DNA from: an uncultured Alphaproteobacteria bacterium
GTDB lineage: Bacteria > Pseudomonadota > Alphaproteobacteria > RF32 > CAG-239
DNA length: 64,000 nucleotides
Assembly: GCA_910585375.1 (NCBI GenBank)
Contig: CAJUCZ010000004.1
Coordinates: 10,636-74,635, forward strand
Reading direction: 5' to 3'
Shown here in pieces: positions 11,522 to 43,617 of the stretch; positions within the stretch are counted from its first letter, which is position 1, and each line of letters starts with the position of its first letter. A program made the translations under genes and the position numbers. The notes beneath the pieces were generated by a model. It was not told where the DNA came from. It made no database searches and saw only the letters and a list, made by a program, of their open reading frames with translations.

Positions 11522-11552
11522 TTGCAAAAAAGAAAGATTCGTTTAATATAAT
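11522..11552 (+). promoter_or_regulatory. sigma70-like promoter of HTH cassette copy 1 (-35 TTGCAA, -10 TATAAT region)
   Basis: TTGCAA at 11522-11527 and AATATAAT at 11545-11552; same arrangement conserved upstream of copies 2 and 3. Confidence 0.55.
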
Positions 11553-11557
11553 AGCCG

Positions 11558-11741
11558 CAGTTCGGAGACGGGCTGTGGTGTCTAACAAACATCTCAAGTT
11601 TAGTTCCTCAATGTGGGGAGTGCCGGAAATAAGTGCGCATGCGCAACGAATAACGGCGACTGTAACTTGACAGTTTGTTAGCTCCCCGCCTTTAATTTTA
11701 AAGGCGGTTTTGTTTTAACAAAATCAAGGAGCTAAAATAAA
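11558..11741 (+). ncRNA. conserved structured 5' leader (attenuator-like) of HTH cassette copy 1
   Basis: 5' hairpin CAGTTCG-GAGA-CGGGCTG (GNRA loop); anti-SD AGCTCC at 11680-11685; intrinsic terminator CCGCCTTTA-attt-TAAAGGCGG+T-run at 11686-11716; SD AGGAGCT at 11727-11733; three homologous copies with compensatory substitutions. Confidence 0.6.
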
Positions 11742-12002
11742 ATGTTATCAAGAAAATATAGAAAAGAGTGGTATAAGACCTTCCGGAGTTATTGTAATAA
11801 AGAATTAAACCGGATGATGACGGAACAGGGCTTAACAAGTACGGAACTGGCGGATCATATAGATTTTTTTGAAGGTCGGATAGAAAAATTAAAAAGAAAT
11901 ACCAGCCATGTGAGAATGGAAGAATATGTGTATTTGTTTTCCTTTCTGGATAAGGTGTTTGAAATAAAACTTGTCGATGCCAAAGATTATCCTTGGCAGT
12001 AA
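11742..12002 (+). CDS. small helix-turn-helix (XRE-like) protein, cassette copy 1
   Basis: HTH-like segment QGLTSTELADHIDFFEGRIEKLKRN; 97% nt identity to 26782-27042 with 6 synonymous and 1 non-synonymous change (purifying selection). Confidence 0.65.
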   Translation: MLSRKYRKEWYKTFRSYCNKELNRMMTEQGLTSTELADHIDFFEGRIEKLKRNTSHVRMEEYVYLFSFLDKVFEIKLVDAKDYPWQ

Positions 12003-12003
12003 T

Positions 12004-12036
12004 AAAAAAGCGGGAGTTTTCTCCCGCTTTTTTCAT
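12004..12036 (+). terminator. intrinsic terminator after HTH gene copy 1 (GCGGGAG-ttttc-TCCCGC + T6)
   Basis: stem-loop plus T-run directly after stop codon. Confidence 0.65.
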
Positions 12037-12433
12037 TTTCTCTGTTCAGAGTACATGCTTTCTCACAAACTTTGCCATAGCACCGCGGTCTCTGAAGCAC
12101 CGTACAAACTGACGCCTCACCCGCTGGGTGCGGCCTCCCGACCGCGGTCTCATGGAACCGTATAAAACGTGCGCCACCCGCCGTGCGGGTCATCCTGAGC
12201 GAAGCGAAGGATCCAATCAAATCATATGGCTTTATTAATCAACTGGATTCTTCACTCCGTTCAGAATGACAGTACGTCTTCTTCAAAGCACTTTCTCAAT
12301 CACATCCCCGCCGGAGCATCGCGGTCCTCTGGGCACGGCGTCGGCAGCTGATCGCTCAGGCCGTCGCCTGTGGCACGGTATTTGCATTAGAGAAAGCAAA
12401 GTAAAAAAATTATCCGCGATTGGGGAGAATAAC

Positions 12434-16478: not shown

Positions 16479-17678
16479 TTAGTTGCAGGTTCCTTCATAT
16501 GATGACGTTTTACCGTCACAGGTTGTATTTTTATCACTGCAAGAGCCACAGTTTTCTGAAGTATACCCATACTTACCGGTTCCATTTTTCTCACAATCTT
16601 CTTTGGTAAGATAGATTGTTCCGTTAGAATAGCAGGCTGAGGTTGTGAATACATCATTTTCTTCTCCTGTAGAGGTGTTTCTGCAGCCTTTAGTTACCTT
16701 ATGGACCCAATGGTAACCGGAACCGCTTGGGGAACAAGAGCCGCCACCGGCTGCGCGGACATACCCGACCCACTTGTTGCCGGAACTCCCGCTCCCTGAA
16801 CTTCCGCTGCCACCAGATCCTGAACCTCCGCCTGAACCGCCGGAATTACCGGAAGACGGGGGCGGGGTATAACAAGACCCACAGCATTTTCTGGTACCGC
16901 CGCACCCGTCGGAACAAGAATAGCAGTTGCATCCGCTTTCATCACCATAAGGCGTACAGCATGATTGATAAGGATAATAGCATGTTTTCGTGCGGCATCC
17001 GTTCTTGGTCGACCCGCCGCAACCTCCGGGGTTAGAGGTTGAAGTTCCGGACGGGCAGTTAGGATTGCAGGTGTAATAGCAGGTATAACCGCAGCCGTCA
17101 GAGCCGTTTGCTCCGTAAGAAGAATAACTTAAAGACGTATTCGCCGGACAGCCGGAAGGCCTGCAGCAGGTACCGAAATTGTTATCATAAGAACAGCGGC
17201 CGGAGGCATGAAGTTTCTGACCGGACGGGCATGAGTTTGTATATCCGGTATCGCGACAAGCCCGTTGATTGTCTCTTTTACAACCTTTGTATAAAGTTGC
17301 GAAACTTGGGCAAGGCTGGTCAACATAGTTCGGGATAGAACATGAGGTCGTGTTATAACCGTTATCGGTACACCATTTAACCGGATCACATTTAAGGTAA
17401 TAATCGTCTTTCTTACACTTACCGACCTGTGCCTGATACTGCGGACATTTACCGGAAGCATAATAGGTGTAACCTTTCTTCTCACACCATTCAGTGTCAT
17501 TGTTGACATTCATGTTTACATCGCCGTGCAAGGTATCGGAATCCTGACAGTCAGGCAGGAAACAGACGCCACAATAAGCATTGGAAGGCGGGAGGAAGAC
17601 CGAGAAAGCAGCGGCCACAGCCAGGGCTGATACCGCAGAGTTTAGTTTCAGGTGTAGCATAGTGTTAATGTTTTTCAT
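16479..17678 (-). CDS. secreted cysteine/glycine/serine-rich protein (399 aa), paralog of 42285-43415
   Basis: signal peptide MKNINTMLHLKLNSAVSALAVAAAFS; ~14% Cys; GS-rich linker PPPSSGNSGGSGGGSGSGGSGSSGSGSSG; RBS GGGAGGAAGCCG-ATG; N-terminal 230 aa ~80% identical to paralog. Confidence 0.7.
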   Translation of the reverse strand: MKNINTMLHLKLNSAVSALAVAAAFSVFLPPSNAYCGVCFLPDCQDSDTLHGDVNMNVNNDTEWCEKKGYTYYASGKCPQYQAQVGKCKKDDYYLKCDPVKWCTDNGYNTTSCSIPNYVDQPCPSFATLYKGCKRDNQRACRDTGYTNSCPSGQKLHASGRCSYDNNFGTCCRPSGCPANTSLSYSSYGANGSDGCGYTCYYTCNPNCPSGTSTSNPGGCGGSTKNGCRTKTCYYPYQSCCTPYGDESGCNCYSCSDGCGGTRKCCGSCYTPPPSSGNSGGSGGGSGSGGSGSSGSGSSGNKWVGYVRAAGGGSCSPSGSGYHWVHKVTKGCRNTSTGEENDVFTTSACYSNGTIYLTKEDCEKNGTGKYGYTSENCGSCSDKNTTCDGKTSSYEGTCN

Positions 17679-17818
17679 CGGCTTCCTCCCAAAGCAAACG
17701 CACCCAGCGGGTGAGGCAACAAAAGCCCCGATCGTCTGTCAACAATGTGCCAAAGCTTTCGCGTTGCTTTTTTCTTTATCTGGGCAACCCAGTGCCCGGA
17801 ATGGTTAATACTAATGTC

Positions 17819-17847
17819 ACTATAGCACACGAAAGCGCAAGAGTCAA
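17819..17847 (-). promoter_or_regulatory. sigma70 promoter of Cys-rich gene 1 (TTGACT-17-TATAGT on minus strand)
   Basis: -10 at 17819-17824, -35 at 17842-17847, 17-nt spacer; identical architecture upstream of paralog; conserved upstream box 17852-17879. Confidence 0.6.
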
Positions 17848-17855
17848 CACATAAT

Positions 17856-18000
17856 GAAAAGTCGGGTGGAGATTTTGGGCAGCAGGATGGGAAAAGCAGA
17901 GGGGATTTTGGCTAATCAGGGAGGAGAAAGTGGAGGGAATGGAGAAAGAATGGAAAGGCGGAAATGGGAAAATAAAAAATGAATTTAAAGATAAGGAAAT
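17856..18000 (+). repeat. polypurine (GA-rich) strand-asymmetric tract
   Basis: ~145 bp almost exclusively G/A on plus strand (GGAGGAGAAAGTGGAGGGAATGGAGAAAGAATGGAAAGG…). Confidence 0.7.
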
Positions 18001-26566: not shown

Positions 26567-26597
26567 TTGCAAAAGTCATAGATTTGTTTATGATAAT
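26567..26597 (+). promoter_or_regulatory. sigma70-like promoter of HTH cassette copy 2 (TTGCAA … TATGATAAT)
   Basis: AAAAAAATCCGCTTGCAAAA block shared verbatim with copy 3. Confidence 0.55.
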
Positions 26598-26602
26598 ACC
26601 CG

Positions 26603-26781
26603 CAGTCCGGAGGCGGACTGTGGTGTCGAAAACATCTTACGAGTTAATCCGCTTTGGCGGAGTTTGGGAAATAAGCCGCTTTGCGGGCGAATAACCATAG
26701 CTGTCTCGTACAGTTTTTCGGCTCCGCCACCCTTGTTTTAGGGTGGTTTTGTTTTAATCAAAACTAGGAGCTAAAAATAAA
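26603..26781 (+). ncRNA. structured 5' leader of HTH cassette copy 2
   Basis: hairpin CAGTCCG-GAGG-CGGACTG at 26603-26620; anti-SD GGCTCC; terminator CCACCC-ttgtttta-GGGTGG + TTTTGTTTT; SD AGGAGCT; homologous to 11558-11741 and 31504-31684. Confidence 0.6.
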
Positions 26782-27042
26782 ATGTTATCAAGAAAATATA
26801 GAAAAGAGTGGTATAAAACCTTCCGGAGTTATTGCAATAAAGAATTAAACCGGATAATGACGGAACAGGGCTTAACAAGTACGGAACTGGCGGATCATAT
26901 AGATTTTTTTGAAGGTCGGATAGAAAAATTAAAAAGAAATACCAGCCATGTGAGAATGGAAGAATATGTGTATCTGTTTTCATTTCTGGATAAAGTGTTT
27001 GAAATAAAACTTGTCGACGCCAAAGATTATCCTTGGCAGTAA
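26782..27042 (+). CDS. small HTH (XRE-like) protein, cassette copy 2
   Basis: 85/86 aa identical to 11742-12002. Confidence 0.65.
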   Translation: MLSRKYRKEWYKTFRSYCNKELNRIMTEQGLTSTELADHIDFFEGRIEKLKRNTSHVRMEEYVYLFSFLDKVFEIKLVDAKDYPWQ

Positions 27043-27950
27043 TAAAAAAGCGGGAGAGAATCCCGCTTTTTTTCTTCCCTCTTCAAAACAGAAACCCTAT
27101 CACATTTCCCATTGGAGTACCGCAATCCTCAGGGCACCGTACAAACTGACGCCTCACCCGCCGGGTGTGACCGCGGGTCTCATGGCACACGTTTTGTACG
27201 GTGCCACCGGTTGTACCGGTCACCCTCTGTCTTTTTTTTATTGTCACCCTCGGGCTTCAACCCGAGGGACCATCTCACAATCGGCACAGTGCTTGTTTCC
27301 TTATGGATTCTCGGGTCGCAGCCCGAGAATGACAGTAGAAGAAAGCCGCAGAATGACAAATGCTTCAAAGCACCATTCCCCCGTCCGGCACGGTTTGTGT
27401 GCCCTTTGCGAATGGCTTAGGTTTTGGAGCAAAAACCGAAAGTGAAACACCACTCCCCTCAAGCCTGAGGGGTGGGGGAGCGCTAAGTAAAAACAACCGC
27501 AGCTCCGGTTGTTTTTGTCTGCAAGCTCTTTGGAACATCTTGGCAAGCGAGGAAAGCGTTAGCAACCGCAGCGAGCCTAGATGCCTAAGTTGCCCCGCCC
27601 GATTACCGAATGATTTCTTAGCTTTTGGCCCAAAGAGGCGAATATTAAGTACTGAGCCTTGGAACGTAGTGATGTTTGTGGCTGCCGGCCTCCCGGCCTT
27701 TGGGTTGAAAGCTTAGAAAATGAGGTTGGGCTTGACTTTTGCCATTTATTCCTCCCCTGAAGCACATCCTCACATCCGGCATGGTTTGGGTGCCCTTTGC
27801 GAATGGCTTAGGTTTTGGAGCAAAAACCGAAAGTGAAGCACAATGGTAGAGAGCGTAGCGAGATTAATTTTGCTCTGAAACCTTAGCAAATGAGCGTAGG
27901 GCTGCCTTTTTGGTTACTTTTTGGCAGTCAAAAAGTAACAATAAAAAATA
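27043..27950 (+). repeat. non-coding repeat/palindrome-rich region (cassette 3' tail plus ~85-bp direct repeats 27366-27450 and 27757-27842; palindromes at 27133-27205, 27247-27268, 27308-27329, 27490-27520, 27912-27938)
   Basis: no credible ORF; multiple perfect inverted repeats (CCCTCGGG…CCCGAGGG; TTCTCGGG…CCCGAGAA; GTTACTTTTTG-gcagt-CAAAAAGTAAC) and an 85-bp direct repeat 390 bp apart. Confidence 0.6.
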
Positions 27951-27961
27951 AACAACTCTAT

Positions 27962-28320
27962 GAAGAAAACAAAACCAGAAAATAAAAAAAGAAAAACAAC
28001 GAAAAAAGAGAGGAGTAAAGAGAGCGGAGAACAAAAGGGACAAGGGGGCGGGAAAAAGAAAGTAGTGGGGAGATCAGAGAACGGGAAGCGGAGAAGACGG
28101 TGCGGGGAGTGATAGGGCGGAAAGAGAGCGGAGAACAAAAGGAACGGGGAAGCAGGAAAAAGAAAGTAGCGGGGAATGAGGAAAAAGAGAGGAGAAAAAA
28201 CGAAAGAGGGAAAAAGGAAAAATGCGGGGAGTGTGGAATGAGAGGAGAGGACTAAACATCCCCTGATGAGAAAATAAATATGAGTAATGAGATAAAAGAA
28301 AATGAAGAAAACGGGATATA
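27962..28320 (+). repeat. long polypurine (A/G) tract with internal ~104-bp imperfect tandem repeat
   Basis: >90% purines on plus strand for ~360 bp; unit AAAGAGAGCGGAGAACAAAAGG… at 28017 and 28121. Confidence 0.75.
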
Positions 28321-31467: not shown

Positions 31468-31684
31468 TTGCAAAATCTTTGTAATACATTATGATAACTC
31501 TCGCAGTCCGGAGACGGACTGTGGTGTCTCAAAACATCTTACAGATTTTCCACCATGAGGTGGAGTGCCTAAAATAAGCCGCTTTGCGGACGAATCATGG
31601 CGACTGTGTCTGTACAGTTTTGAGCTCCACCACCTTAGTTTCTAAGGTGGTTTTGTTTTAACAAAATTATGGAGCTAAAAAATA
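31468..31684 (+). ncRNA. promoter (TTGCAA-16-TATGAT) plus structured 5' leader of HTH cassette copy 3
   Basis: hairpin CAGTCCG-GAGA-CGGACTG at 31504-31521; anti-SD AGCTCC; terminator CACCACCTTAG-tttc-TAAGGTGG + TTTTGTTTT; SD GGAGCT; ATG 31685. Confidence 0.6.
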
Positions 31685-31957
31685 ATGAAGAATATAAAAT
31701 ATCAATCCAGAGCGACAAATCCGCTGAAAGCGATTCACCGGACGCTGGGTTTCGCCTTTTACTGCGAAAGGCGAAAAGACGAGATTCCGTTAAAAAAAGT
31801 CAGCAAGAAACTAAAAGTCCCAACCGAATATATAGAAGATTTGGAATTAGGACGCGGCAAAATCAGACCGTGGCTGATAAAAGAACTTCTGGAATATTAT
31901 AATAGAAAAATATCAGTCTACCTTGACATACCGGAAGATAAGATGAAAAAGAACTAA
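31685..31957 (+). CDS. small HTH (XRE-like) protein, cassette copy 3 (divergent paralog)
   Basis: HTH segment KKVSKKLKVPTEYIEDLELGRGKIRPWLIKEL; same leader/terminator/tail context as copies 1-2. Confidence 0.55.
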   Translation: MKNIKYQSRATNPLKAIHRTLGFAFYCERRKDEIPLKKVSKKLKVPTEYIEDLELGRGKIRPWLIKELLEYYNRKISVYLDIPEDKMKKN

Positions 31958-32113
31958 AACAAAAGCGGGCTTAACCTCCCGCTTTTTTCATTTCAAAGCA
32001 CCATCTCCCCCACAAACCCCGCCATAGCATCGCGGTCCTCAGAGCAGGGTGTTAACAACCGAAGCCTCACCCGCCGGGTGCGGCCTCCCGACAGCAGCCG
32101 ATGTTCGGCAAAT

Positions 32114-33753: not shown

Positions 33754-33830
33754 GGGGGCGTAGTTCAGCTGGTTAGAATACATGCCTGTCACGCATGGGG
33801 TCGCGAGTTCGAGCCTCGTCGCTCCCGCCA
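33754..33830 (+). tRNA. tRNA-Asp (anticodon GUC)
   Basis: cloverleaf: acceptor GGGGGCG/CGCTCCC, D-arm TAGTTCAGCTGGTTAGAATA, anticodon stem CATGC/GCATG loop CUGUCAC, T-arm GCGAG-TTCGAGC-CTCGT, discriminator G, CCA encoded. Confidence 0.9.
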
Positions 33831-33841
33831 TTATAAAAAAA

Positions 33842-33911
33842 AGCTGCCTTTATGGCGGCTTTTTTTATAATATCAGGGTAGCAGAGGCTCGAACTCGGAA
33901 GAGCCCGCTAA
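33842..33911 (+). repeat. 70-bp direct repeat copy A (terminator hairpin AGCTGCC-ttta-TGGCGGCT + T7, plus tRNA T-arm-like fragment)
   Basis: 69/70 identical to 34179-34248; contains RC of a tRNA-Asp-like T-arm (CCGAGTTCGAGCCTCTG). Confidence 0.7.
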
Positions 33912-33941: not shown

Positions 33942-34178
33942 TCTGCAAGAGCAATGACATCTTAGTGAAAGAGGGCGTGTGAGCAACCGAATTGAACTTA
34001 GATGCCATTGGACGAAGCTGCGAAGCAGCGTGCCTCGTTGCTCCCAAAAAACATCCTGATTAAAGCTTGTGAGCGAGAGGGCAAAGCGAAACAAGCGTTA
34101 CATAGCGGTGCCCGCAGCGAGTTAGCGTTGCGAATGAAGGTAATGCTTACAAGCCGGAAAAGCCTCATCACAAATTTG

Positions 34179-34248
34179 AGCTGCCTTTATGGCGGCTTTT
34201 TTTATAATGTCAGGGTAGCAGAGGCTCGAACTCGGAAGAGCCCGCTAA
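34179..34248 (+). repeat. 70-bp direct repeat copy B
   Basis: see copy A; spacing 337 bp. Confidence 0.7.
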
Positions 34249-42284: not shown

Positions 42285-43415
42285 CTAATAACATGTAAAC
42301 TCAGCACTTATACCGCCCCAAGAGCAACCAATAAATTCTGCGTTGTTGCAGCTTGATAATGCGCTGCTGCAATTGCTAAAGCCGATACCTGAAAATTTAA
42401 AAGCACAGTCATTATAGCGGCCACAGTAGGAACCAATATCATCACAACAACTCATATGGTAGCCTGGATTACTGGGAGAGCAGCCGTAACCGCCGCATTG
42501 CGGATCACAAGAATCAATAGAGCCGTCTTTGCAGCAGTCGCCATGACATGTAGAATGGACGGAGCACCAGTTGGAAGAGGACGAGTTGCAGCAAGAAGAA
42601 CACCTTTTGCAAGTCCCCCCGCAACCATCGGAAATCGTGTAAGAGCCGCAGGAACAAGAGCTTGTGGTATCGGAACAGCTTGGCGTACAACAAGCTTGAT
42701 AAGGATAATAACAAGTTTTATCCCCGCATCCATTTTTGGTCGAACCGCCACAACCTCCGGGGTTGGAAGTTGAAGTACCTGACGGGCAGTTAGGGTTGCA
42801 GGTGTAATAACAGGTATACTCGCAGCCATCGGTACCGTTCATGCCGTAGGATGAAGAAGTTAAAGACGTATAAGCCGGACAATCAGACGGCGTACAGCAG
42901 GTGCCGTAGGATGAATCGTAAGTACAACGACCGGAGTTCTTTTTAAGCTTCTGACCTGACGGACAGGTTTTGGTATATTTGAGTTCCTTACAAGCCCGTT
43001 GATTGTCTCTTTTACAACCTTTGTATAAAGTTGCGAAACTTGGGCAAGGCTGGTCAACATAGTTCGGGATAGAACAAGTTGTCGTGTTATAACCGTTTTG
43101 CTGACACCAGGTCTTTGCGTCACATTTGAGGTAATAGTCGTCAAAAGGGCATGTATCCGTCACAGCCTGGTACTGCGGACATTTACCGGAAGCGTAATAG
43201 GTAAAGCCTTCTTTTTCACATTTATCGGTATCAATGTTGGGATTAGGGTTAGGCCCCGGAAAAACGCCGTCTTCATCGCCGCAGTCCGGCAGGAAGCAGA
43301 CGCCACAATAAGCATTGGAAGGTGGGAGGAAGACCGAGAAAGCAGCGGCCACAGCCAAGACTGATACCGCAGAGTTTAGTTTCATGTGTAGCATATTTCT
43401 GTTAATGTTTTTCAT
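42285..43415 (-). CDS. secreted cysteine/glycine/serine-rich protein (376 aa), paralog of 16479-17678
   Basis: start set to ATG 43415 with RBS GGGAGGAAGCCG (not upstream ATG 43454); signal peptide; conserved N-terminal 230 aa, divergent C-terminal region. Confidence 0.7.
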   Translation of the reverse strand: MKNINRNMLHMKLNSAVSVLAVAAAFSVFLPPSNAYCGVCFLPDCGDEDGVFPGPNPNPNIDTDKCEKEGFTYYASGKCPQYQAVTDTCPFDDYYLKCDAKTWCQQNGYNTTTCSIPNYVDQPCPSFATLYKGCKRDNQRACKELKYTKTCPSGQKLKKNSGRCTYDSSYGTCCTPSDCPAYTSLTSSSYGMNGTDGCEYTCYYTCNPNCPSGTSTSNPGGCGGSTKNGCGDKTCYYPYQACCTPSCSDTTSSCSCGSYTISDGCGGTCKRCSSCCNSSSSNWCSVHSTCHGDCCKDGSIDSCDPQCGGYGCSPSNPGYHMSCCDDIGSYCGRYNDCAFKFSGIGFSNCSSALSSCNNAEFIGCSWGGISAEFTCY

Positions 43416-43557
43416 CGGCTTCCTCCCATAATAAAAATTCTTTTCAAAGCACATACTTTGTCATAATTAACTGCTGAAGCAACGCAGGTTCTAAGACACT
43501 GTATAAACCGATCGCTGCCGACGTTCGGCCACCTGTCGTGCAGGTGACAATGAAGAT

Positions 43558-43617
43558 ACTATAGCACAATAAAATACCTGTGTCAATATGCAATGAAAAG
43601 TCGAGTAGAGATTTTGG
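43558..43617 (-). promoter_or_regulatory. sigma70 promoter of Cys-rich gene 2 (TTGACA-17-TATAGT) with conserved upstream box
   Basis: -10 43558-43563, -35 43581-43586; box CCAAAATCTCTACTCGACTTTTCATT (minus strand) ~27/28 identical to gene-1 box. Confidence 0.6.

Follow-up and report, generated by a model that had tools for sequence, protein, structure and literature searches.

Repeated cassettes for small XRE-type proteins in gut Alphaproteobacteria carry a structured leader RNA consistent with a two-state switch

sRNA-Xcc1 is a small RNA (sRNA) of about 88 nt from Xanthomonas, which reports on plant pathogens describe as acting in trans and as linked to virulence. In Xanthomonas it precedes symE, and is co-oriented with it, in the integron cassette that is most widespread there; APSE phages have it ahead of an ORF6N gene, and Xylella has seven copies, among them a tandem run of five spaced about 381 nt apart. 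In type I toxin mRNAs (hok, tisB, dinQ, zorO) the 5' untranslated region refolds and an inert primary transcript is activated by processing, and T-box and c-di-GMP-I RNAs, like the leader described here, occur in many copies per genome. Here we report on a 64,000-nt stretch of an uncultured Alphaproteobacteria bacterium (GCA_910585375.1, contig CAJUCZ010000004.1, positions 10,636 to 74,635; hereafter the window), which holds three copies of a cassette in which a structured leader RNA precedes a gene for a small helix-turn-helix (HTH) protein of the XRE type. The reading that we favour, at a probability of roughly 0.6, is that each copy is a self-contained expression cassette for an XRE protein, the output of which is gated by a 5' leader RNA that acts in cis and has two states. 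That the leaders form a new, uncatalogued family of structured cis-regulatory leaders, of a known kind (an RNA switch with a terminator and masking of the Shine-Dalgarno sequence, SD), is strongly supported.

A first-pass annotation, made from the letters of the window, had proposed a repeated module, and its three copies proved real, all on the plus strand and in the places given for them. A covariance model run over the 64-kb window returned exactly three leaders (11555-11712, 26600-26751 and 31501-31655), and the 27-nt P1 motif from the leader start gave three matches with at most two mismatches, none being expected in shuffled sequence. Common to all three copies are a TTGCAA -35 element, a leader of about 187 nt with an intrinsic terminator, a GGAGCT SD, an open reading frame (ORF) and a second terminator. 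The annotated promoter was recovered, with TTGCAA at 11522, 26567 and 31468 and with a AAAAAAATCCGCTTGCAAAA ... TATGATAA block shared by copies 2 and 3; so were an intrinsic terminator about 25 nt 5' of each ATG (in copy 1 a 9-bp stem followed by TTTTGTTTT in a terminator scan), an anti-SD hexamer (AGCTCC in copies 1 and 3, GGCTCC in copy 2) opposite the GGAGCT, and ORFs of 86, 86 and 90 amino acids (aa). The coding regions of copies 1 and 2 do differ by 7 nt, six synonymous and one non-synonymous, while the leaders are only 66-75% identical. Folding of the three leaders was more stable than that of shuffled sequences, with z = -6.3, -4.4 and -6.4 for copies 1, 2 and 3.

The copy 1 promoter scored 8/12 at 16-nt spacing and was missed by a simple promoter scan; the block of TTGCAA, spacer and TAnnAT is kept upstream of all of the roughly 100 leaders that were eventually collected, and the copy 1 transcript would start at P1 or slightly before it. 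A second promoter-like match, TTAACA-17-TAAAAT (10/12) at 11715-11743, lies between the leader terminator and the ORF and was rejected as an independent promoter of the ORF: it overlaps the start codon and so could yield no translatable mRNA, and its TTAACA is kept in most cassettes because it falls inside the invariant GGTTTTGTTTTAACAAAA segment. The U-tract of that segment is able to pair with a downstream AACAAAA.

While the description as a three-copy module was exact for the window, it falls short of the family, which has about 100 members. When one genome per species was scanned with a degenerate pattern, 42 further copies emerged, all of them in four gut 'Alphaproteobacteria' metagenome-assembled genomes (MAGs), with about 23 copies in MGYG-HGUT-04444 and 13 in RGIG9125. 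A looser pattern scan of metagenome contigs, followed by a covariance-model filter, added 55 more divergent leaders (40 distinct) from gut samples. Gut Alphaproteobacteria MAGs and gut metagenomes were the only sources of leaders in the scans made. Every leader with readable 3' sequence precedes an XRE-like ORF of 75-165 aa that begins 25-60 nt past the terminator; a few of these ORFs are frameshifted or carry an insertion, and the leader is intact over a frameshifted ORF at loci L006, L031, L080 and L123. The comparative alignment comprised 98 leaders, 82 of them distinct, fitted to the covariance model.

This alignment of homologues bore out the claim that the leader is a structured RNA, with massive covariation in six helices and the terminator. 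In what we term the OFF fold, a stable 5' hairpin (P1) is followed by a three-way junction closed by P2 and P3, which carries the P4 hairpin and a P5-P6 arm, and then by the intrinsic terminator. Across P1-P6 and the terminator 96.0% of 3611 cells are paired, 760 cells having changed on both sides, and the covariation score was 0.562, as against 0.189 for shuffles and at most 0.087 for slid-partner controls. All pairs of P3, P5 and P6 covary, as do six of the eight in the terminator. Complementarity between anti-SD and SD is present in every copy, and nearly all leaders have the U-tract TTTTGTTTT. The internal loop between P5 and P6 sets AUAAG opposite CGAAU or CGAAG and resembles a UAA/GAN motif.

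P1 covaries in the wider set, with GAGA, GAGG, GAAG, UUCG, UCCG or a hexaloop at its tip. The observations on P1 that had been put forward from the window itself are not where the evidence for a structured RNA lies: the supposed covariation in copy 1 consists of one C-G and one U-A pair changed to U.G, which is one-sided and non-compensatory and does not involve two C-G pairs, and the GNRA cap holds in the sub-clade of the window but not in relatives, where the P1 loop is UUCG, UCCG or CCAGAA. Strand-specific G.U pairs are frequent in P1 (the pair of columns 3 and 22 is G.U in 81 of 82 leaders), and together with the GNRA and UNCG loops they identify P1 as an RNA hairpin; they rule out a DNA operator.

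Three other explanations of the leader were discarded. Leader-peptide attenuation was contradicted by the reading frames, since, counted from the candidate GUG, the conserved UAA falls in the three phases at 40/31/25, no ORF is conserved, and the longest closed leader ORF ranges from 10 to 49 codons with no favoured length. A reading of the GNRA hairpin by the basic N-terminus of the protein, in the manner of lambda N and boxB, fails because relatives have a UNCG loop or hexaloop on P1 and because one type of protein, the B type, has no basic segment. A type III toxin-antitoxin system was likewise ruled out, as the RNA lacks tandem repeats and the gene encodes an HTH protein instead of an endoribonuclease.

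The first-pass annotation had further called the leader attenuator- or riboswitch-like. The layout of an attenuator, with its anti-SD/SD pair, was indeed present, and the alternative helix that had been missing from the description was found when RNAalifold was run on a sequence-only MAFFT alignment: P4 was absent from the result, and the P4 3' strand with the following GU was paired instead with a G, the CUCC and three further nucleotides. This ON helix is 8 bp long, joins the P4 3' strand (GGNGGAGU) to the anti-SD and the foot of the terminator, and was 97.9% paired in the large alignment. Its variable pair is U-A in 36 cases, C-G in 21, A-U in 6, U.G in 3 and G.U in 2; the sole mismatch is in a chimeric copy, and ten GGGGAG/CUCCCC cases pair after a shift of one column. 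Although the OFF fold leaves the base that follows CUCC unpaired, 81% of the information of this base is shared with a P4 3' base 80 nt upstream. As the variable positions of the intervening helices share only 7-27%, linkage by descent does not explain this coupling. Computed at the decision point, when the anti-SD region has just been transcribed, the mean stability of the ON fold falls short of that of the OFF fold by 4.3 kcal/mol, a gap consistent with a switch. Since a second, mutually exclusive helix covaries as well, the leader is best described as a two-state switch, and both folds are shown by the comparison of sequences to be under selection, with the terminator conserved.

In the mechanism that we propose, transcription would start at P1 from a strong promoter. 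In the OFF state P2-P6 would form, most transcripts would stop at the terminator as an RNA of about 160 nt, and in those that read through the SD GGAGCU would be masked by AGCUCC. In the ON state the P4 3' strand would take up the anti-SD together with the two lowest base pairs of the terminator, and the middle of the leader would refold to a three-way junction resembling sRNA-Xcc1, in which the outer helix encloses the P5/P6 arm and a hairpin ACUG:CAGU, with the ribosome-binding site freed and termination probably weakened. The extra hairpins of the ON fold, GGUGU:ACAUC and ACUG:CAGU, are possible from invariant linkers. The switch could be thrown by an ion or metabolite, by some common factor of the host, or by processing at the 5' end, which would remove the partner strands of the OFF state. 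The conserved nucleotides of the junction and loops and the UAA/GAN-like loop are compatible with a ligand-binding aptamer.

Several points weigh against this mechanism. Only one position of the ON helix varies, and the SD:anti-SD pair as well as GGUGU:ACAUC and ACUG:CAGU are invariant and thus lend no covariation support; invariance of the linkers is as expected of strands that fit two structures. The search patterns demanded CTGTGGTGTC, AACATC and GGAGT, so that the apparent conservation of those segments is inflated, and segments are exchanged between the leaders of one genome, which makes the sequences dependent on one another as samples. Everything said of the promoter, the start of transcription, termination and read-through is inferred. 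Finally, the ON helix overlaps the anti-SD completely and the terminator stem by 2 bp only, so that terminator and ON helix could coexist and antitermination is uncertain. Control of ribosome access, and hence of translation, is for that reason better supported than true antitermination, for which support is weak.

The strong promoter and strong terminator that stand before the ORF would also suit an sRNA gene in its own right, which would release a terminated RNA of about 160 nt, or a processed one of about 100 nt resembling sRNA-Xcc1, to act in trans, with the XRE gene expressed by leak-through or carried as a passenger. The nearest Rfam family, sRNA-Xcc1, has been seen on Northern blots as an RNA of about 88-100 nt, is catalogued as trans-acting, and is abundant in enterohaemorrhagic Escherichia coli with low ribosome coverage; the four intact leaders over frameshifted ORFs also fit. 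We nevertheless consider such a role unlikely as the main one. In about 100 cases the RNA always has an XRE-type ORF 25-60 nt downstream, and in each copy the anti-SD hexamer complements the SD of that very ORF. Moreover, the covarying alternative helix uses exactly the anti-SD strand, which fits control in cis and is unexplained in trans, and the helices are hypervariable, with no conserved single-stranded seed except the switch strands. A cis role and a trans role are not mutually exclusive.

How the leader relates to sRNA-Xcc1 itself was approached through Rfam. At gathering thresholds a scan of the window returned two tRNAs only, and E-value scans of the leaders gave look-alikes of terminators and sub-threshold sRNA-Xcc1, with no match to a riboswitch or T-box model. 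That the leader had not been recognised as any named family is borne out at threshold, but the leader is not wholly without relatives: sRNA-Xcc1 (RF02221) was the only recurrent match, in the same register on five distinct leaders, at 21.1 (window 11612-11698), 24.5, 26.6, 28.4 and 31.4 bits against a gathering score of 53. In the alignment each helix of its three-way junction falls on one of the ON fold, the two sharing a G-rich/C-rich outer helix, an arm with an AUAxAA/GAAUAA internal loop, a second hairpin and a UUnGAG linker. In the leader the outer helix is supported by RNAalifold and covariation and the P5/P6 arm covaries, while the second hairpin is invariant. In the reciprocal search, with filters off and E up to 10, an ON-fold model (R2) built from 32 leaders missed a 69-bit sRNA-Xcc1 of phage 933W, so that membership in sRNA-Xcc1 is not established; the likeness may reflect distant homology or convergence, and a link of some kind is likely.

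The 933W element (NC_000924 61136-61224; L166 41137-41225, minus strand) is a genuine sRNA-Xcc1 at 69.1 bits for which the record has no annotation. Its place is the 5' leader of ant (ST933Wp80), an antirepressor gene, about 40 nt upstream of the gene; a hairpin and an SD come after it. In the predicted minimum free energy fold of this leader an upstream strand occupies the 5' strand of the junction, a predicted competing strand that would follow the same logic as the cassette leader. Its position and this predicted strand suggest that sRNA-Xcc1 elements are cis-acting leaders, a reinterpretation in which sRNA-Xcc1 may be the core of cis leaders for small toxin or regulator genes. The literature coordinates for the sRNA-Xcc1 of EDL933 correspond to hokW/sokW in the assembly examined, and a BLAST search of plasmids with the sRNA-Xcc1 consensus gave no match. 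In contrast to sRNA-Xcc1, which is found in integrons, transposons, plasmids and phages, the cassette leader is chromosomal in gut Alphaproteobacteria. Its length is double that of sRNA-Xcc1, and it adds a 5' hairpin, a full OFF fold, a true intrinsic terminator and an invariant GGAGU/GCUCC outer helix, and the genes downstream are exclusively of the XRE type. A bolder version of our interpretation would make the leader a new class of signal-sensing switch, a riboswitch or a processing-activated RNA, that places some 20 solitary XRE regulators per genome under one input, and at the same time an ancestral-type, full-length sRNA-Xcc1, whose own RNA would then be the ON-state core of cis leaders and not a trans sRNA; this we put forward tentatively, as a possibility more doubtful than probable.

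Among previously reported gut RNAs, Fremin & Bhatt (2021) give HTH_XRE as the commonest domain directly downstream of their candidate RNAs, and their supplement has 15 candidate RNAs upstream of HTH_XRE genes. The motif strings of the leader were not found in about 194 of the 3161 alignments of that study, and an earlier listing of the family there is possible.

Compared across genomes, the cassettes are mosaics. The upstream flank of window copy 1 recurs at L007, L016 and L120, so that its position is conserved between species, and the copy 3 locus recurs at L030 and L043-L052; orthologous sites carry differing leaders. Near-identical leaders precede different protein types (window copy 1 and L015), the same protein is found with different leaders, and the promoter spacers are of two unrelated types, each found with either protein. 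Recombination between paralogues thus shuffles promoter, leader and ORF as modules, and the cassettes offer a striking example of modular, concerted evolution; with such shuffling one signal would address all of the 20-odd cassettes of a genome.

Such a pattern might also be expected of selfish, gene-converting or mobile repeats without any switching, the second helix being a by-product of the resemblance of P4 and the anti-SD region to SD and anti-SD. The high copy number (about 23 in one MAG) and the mosaic copies L030 and L120 would agree with this, as would the tandem copies L067 and L089, assembly breaks within leaders, the adjoining repeats that resemble repetitive extragenic palindromes (REP) or miniature inverted-repeat transposable elements (MITE), and a MITE inserted in two leaders. 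The flanks of copies 1 and 3, however, are the same across species, and the cassettes have no terminal repeats, transposase or viral association. The protein is under purifying selection and seven helices show compensatory evolution, and the by-product model does not predict that the base after CUCC should track the P4 3' base although it is unpaired in the OFF fold. We therefore hold this account to be highly improbable. A phage association was rejected separately: the sole match on a viral contig was due to chance and lies inside a high-GC phage gene, and PHROGs and PADLOC gave generic HTH matches only.

The chimeric leaders L030 (588-744) and L120 (844-1008) combine the 5' half of one variant with the 3' half of another, as a result of which P3 is unpaired in both and, in L120, the ON helix too; they are either recent recombinants or chimeras of metagenome assembly across the repeat. 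Complete cassettes stand in tandem at L067 (9161-9857) and L089 (1274-1978), 542 nt from start to start and with differing leaders and XRE sub-types, an arrangement which recalls the tandem sRNA-Xcc1 array of about 381 nt spacing in Xylella. At L001 (7686-7951) and L040 (from about 235) the P2 3' strand is interrupted by a MITE-like element of about 266 bp, bounded by terminal inverted repeats of 16-17 bp (GGGCATAAAATATCCCC ... GGGGATATTTTATGCC), which parts the structured domain from the terminator; P3 of L001 is also mismatched. Of the divergent cassettes L091, L084, L132, L099 and L098/L123, some have an extra insert of 25-50 nt between terminator and SD, often a hairpin such as GTCACCCGCCATTGGGGGCAAAAC, and others encode longer proteins, one of 152 aa and one of 165 aa with Pfam HTH matches in its C-terminal half.

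That the downstream proteins are HTH proteins was upheld and made specific, as XRE-type, by the Pfam matches of relatives and a search with a family profile. By themselves the window proteins fell below the Pfam cut-offs (16.9 and 19.9 bits), whereas cassette relatives exceeded them for HTH_31 (33.9 bits), HTH_25 (29.8 bits) and HTH_3 (24.3 bits). Against solved structures the profile matched C.BclI, HigA, the Xre regulator of ICEBs1 (ImmR-like), DdrOC, ClgR, C.AhdI, HipB, SinR and 434 repressor, the best match having E = 2e-7 and the others being weaker. The protein types share 11-26% identity, yet align end to end and have a conserved, beta-strand-like '..IELVD' tail at the C-terminus; A-type proteins have a basic N-terminus, which B-type proteins do not. 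In a set of 5.8 billion proteins the window proteins had close relatives in no more than 12 and 2 clusters, none of which is annotated. Purifying selection on the protein, which had been proposed from copies 1 and 2 with gene conversion as the alternative, was supported by a pooled pN/pS of 0.20 for A-type genes.

The likeness to controller (C) proteins of restriction-modification systems and to XRE-type antitoxins (C.BclI, C.AhdI, HigA, HipB) lies in a length of about 75-100 aa and the XRE helix-turn-helix, at profile E = 2e-7 to 1e-3. As those proteins are autoregulators, and as P1 is at the DNA level an inverted repeat just past the promoter and A-type proteins are basic at the N-terminus, the encoded protein might bind the leader RNA, or the DNA of the P1 palindrome or promoter, and so control its own cassette. 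We regard this as decidedly unlikely. Leaders, promoters and dissimilar protein sub-families (11-26% identity) recombine freely with no cognate pairing; tolerance of G.U on one strand of P1 and the exchange of GNRA for UNCG loops are signatures of RNA and not of an operator; and the promoter spacers, two unrelated types used with either protein, have no common palindromic operator. It is in particular the shuffling of modules and the diversity of proteins that make autoregulation by a cognate protein unlikely. Unlike the genes for C proteins and XRE antitoxins, moreover, the cassette genes are solitary, with their own promoter and terminators and with no partner toxin or restriction-modification genes, and their protein family is extremely narrow and carries the '..IELVD' tail.

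Set beside known regulatory RNAs, the cassette leader with its proposed two-state gating shares with riboswitch and attenuator platforms an intrinsic terminator in the 5' leader together with anti-SD:SD pairing, a strand with a second, mutually exclusive partner beside the terminator, and conserved junction and loop nucleotides amid hypervariable, covarying stems. It differs in that the shared strand belongs to an internal hairpin, P4, and not to the closing helix, with a 2-bp overlap with the terminator; in that it has neither a leader peptide nor a match to a riboswitch or T-box model; and in that the genes controlled are small paralogues resembling transcription factors, not metabolic or transport genes. 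With type I toxin mRNAs it shares a long, structured leader in which the SD is masked by a distant anti-SD and exposed in an alternative fold; relatives of sRNA-Xcc1 precede symE-type toxin genes, and loss of the 5' third of the cassette leader would leave the ON three-way junction exactly. In contrast to those mRNAs, the cassette has no antisense RNA partner, its leader contains an intrinsic terminator, and it has no toxin, the product being an XRE HTH protein.

What is unusual about the family is its very high copy number, the shuffling of its modules, the use of an internal hairpin as toggle, and the likely link to sRNA-Xcc1. The leader, with about 80 distinct sequences, illustrates a two-state RNA on a large scale and with unusual clarity, and as both alternative structures leave a comparative signature the design is directly testable by a few mutants. 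The occurrence of up to about 23 copies in a small genome, always before a private XRE family, points to an unrecognised genome-wide circuit in poorly known bacteria of the human and animal gut.

Table 1. Predicted features of the three cassettes, in window coordinates.
Feature	Position	Strand	Details
Copy 1 promoter	11522-11553	+	-35 TTGCAA 11522-11527; -10-like TAATAT/TATAAT 11544-11552
Copy 1 leader RNA to end of U-tract	11555-11716	+	Covariance-model match 118.6 bits; fold z, terminator scan, covariation
Copy 1 leader subparts	P1 11555-11578; P2-P6 domain 11582-11681; P4 switch hairpin 11605-11621	+	
Copy 1 UAA/GAN-like loop	11627-11633 / 11647-11652	+	AAATAAG / CGAATA
Copy 1 anti-SD and terminator stem	11680-11685; 11686-11707	+	AGCTCC; stem followed by T-tract
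Copy 1 switch strand (P4 3' strand)	11615-11621	+	GGGGAGT; partner TCCTC 11605-11609 (OFF) or GCTCCCC 11681-11687 (ON)
Copy 1 SD and ORF	11728-12002	+	GGAGCT 11728-11733; 86-aa XRE-like ORF 11742-12002 including stop
Copy 1 3' terminator	12004-12033	+	AAAAAAGCGGGAG-TTTT-CTCCCGCTTTTTT; end of conserved cassette
Copy 2 promoter	26567-26598	+	-35 TTGCAA 26567-26572; TATGATAAT -10 region; A-tract and TCCGC just before
Copy 2 leader RNA	26600-26755	+	Covariance-model match 147.3 bits; P1 26600-26623; P4 26648-26663
Copy 2 switch strand	26656-26663	+	GGCGGAGT; ON partner GCTCCGCC 26721-26728
Copy 2 anti-SD and terminator	26720-26725; to 26755	+	GGCTCC; terminator and U-tract up to 26755
Copy 2 SD and ORF	26767-27042	+	GGAGCT 26767-26772; 86-aa ORF 26782-27042; protein identical to that of copy 1 but for one residue
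Copy 2 3' terminator	27046-27073	+	
Copy 3 promoter	31468-31499	+	-35 TTGCAA 31468-31473; TATGATAAC
Copy 3 leader RNA	31501-31659	+	Covariance-model match 175.2 bits; P1 31501-31524; P4 31549-31566
Copy 3 switch strand	31559-31566	+	GGTGGAGT; ON partner GCTCCACC 31624-31631
Copy 3 anti-SD and terminator	31623-31628; 31629-31659	+	AGCTCC; terminator and U-tract
Copy 3 SD and ORF	31671-31957	+	GGAGCT 31671-31676; 90-aa XRE-like ORF 31685-31957, different sub-family
Copy 3 3' terminator	31961-31988	+	

Conservation of the unit stops with the 3' terminator (at 12033, 27073 and 31988 in copies 1, 2 and 3). The GC-rich palindromic tail, which had been counted as part of the module, does not belong to it: the inverted repeats of the tails are genuine, but the tails vary from copy to copy, none follows L002, L011 or L020, and one of their motifs also occurs without a cassette at 17701. 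They comprise several interspersed repeat families that vary by cassette, and tandem cassettes abut without tails. The tails are separate, REP/MITE-like repeats, and their identification as an attC site was rejected as well. GC-rich repeats lie between genes at 12040-12370, 17690-17720, 27080-27360 and 32000-32100 of the window and form the tails in L004-L039. One family has the form TTCAAAGCAC..GCCATAGCAnCGCGGTC..GCCTCACCCGCYGGGTG and a second GTCATCCTGAGCGAAGCGAAGGATCC ... CAGAATGACAG, and a third, an inverted-repeat element of 55 nt, lies at 27219-27357; these repeats are often 3' of cassettes and are found at other sites as well.

The surroundings are those of an ordinary chromosome, with flgF/G, flgA and flgH after copy 1, flaF before copy 2, and genes for prolyl-tRNA synthetase (ProRS), a resistance-nodulation-division (RND) efflux pump, a glutathione S-transferase (GST) and an M23 peptidase as further neighbours. 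The gap between cassette 2 and the ProRS gene contains direct repeats of 77 nt (27374-27450 / 27765-27841, 91% identity) and purine-rich direct repeats of 60 nt (28012-28071 / 28116-28175, 85% identity); the ORF at 27360-27716 has no Pfam match. A duplication of about 930 bp, with its copies 25.7 kb apart (16951-17878 and 42682-43617, 77-95% identity), spans most of a 399-aa ORF (16479-17678, minus strand, no Pfam match) and its upstream region, and is best conserved, at 95%, around the start codon. A tRNA-Asp gene (33754-33830) is followed by two direct repeats of 83 nt (33829-33911 / 34166-34248, 92% identity), each with a terminator-like hairpin, which bracket about 250 nt and could be a remnant att duplication.

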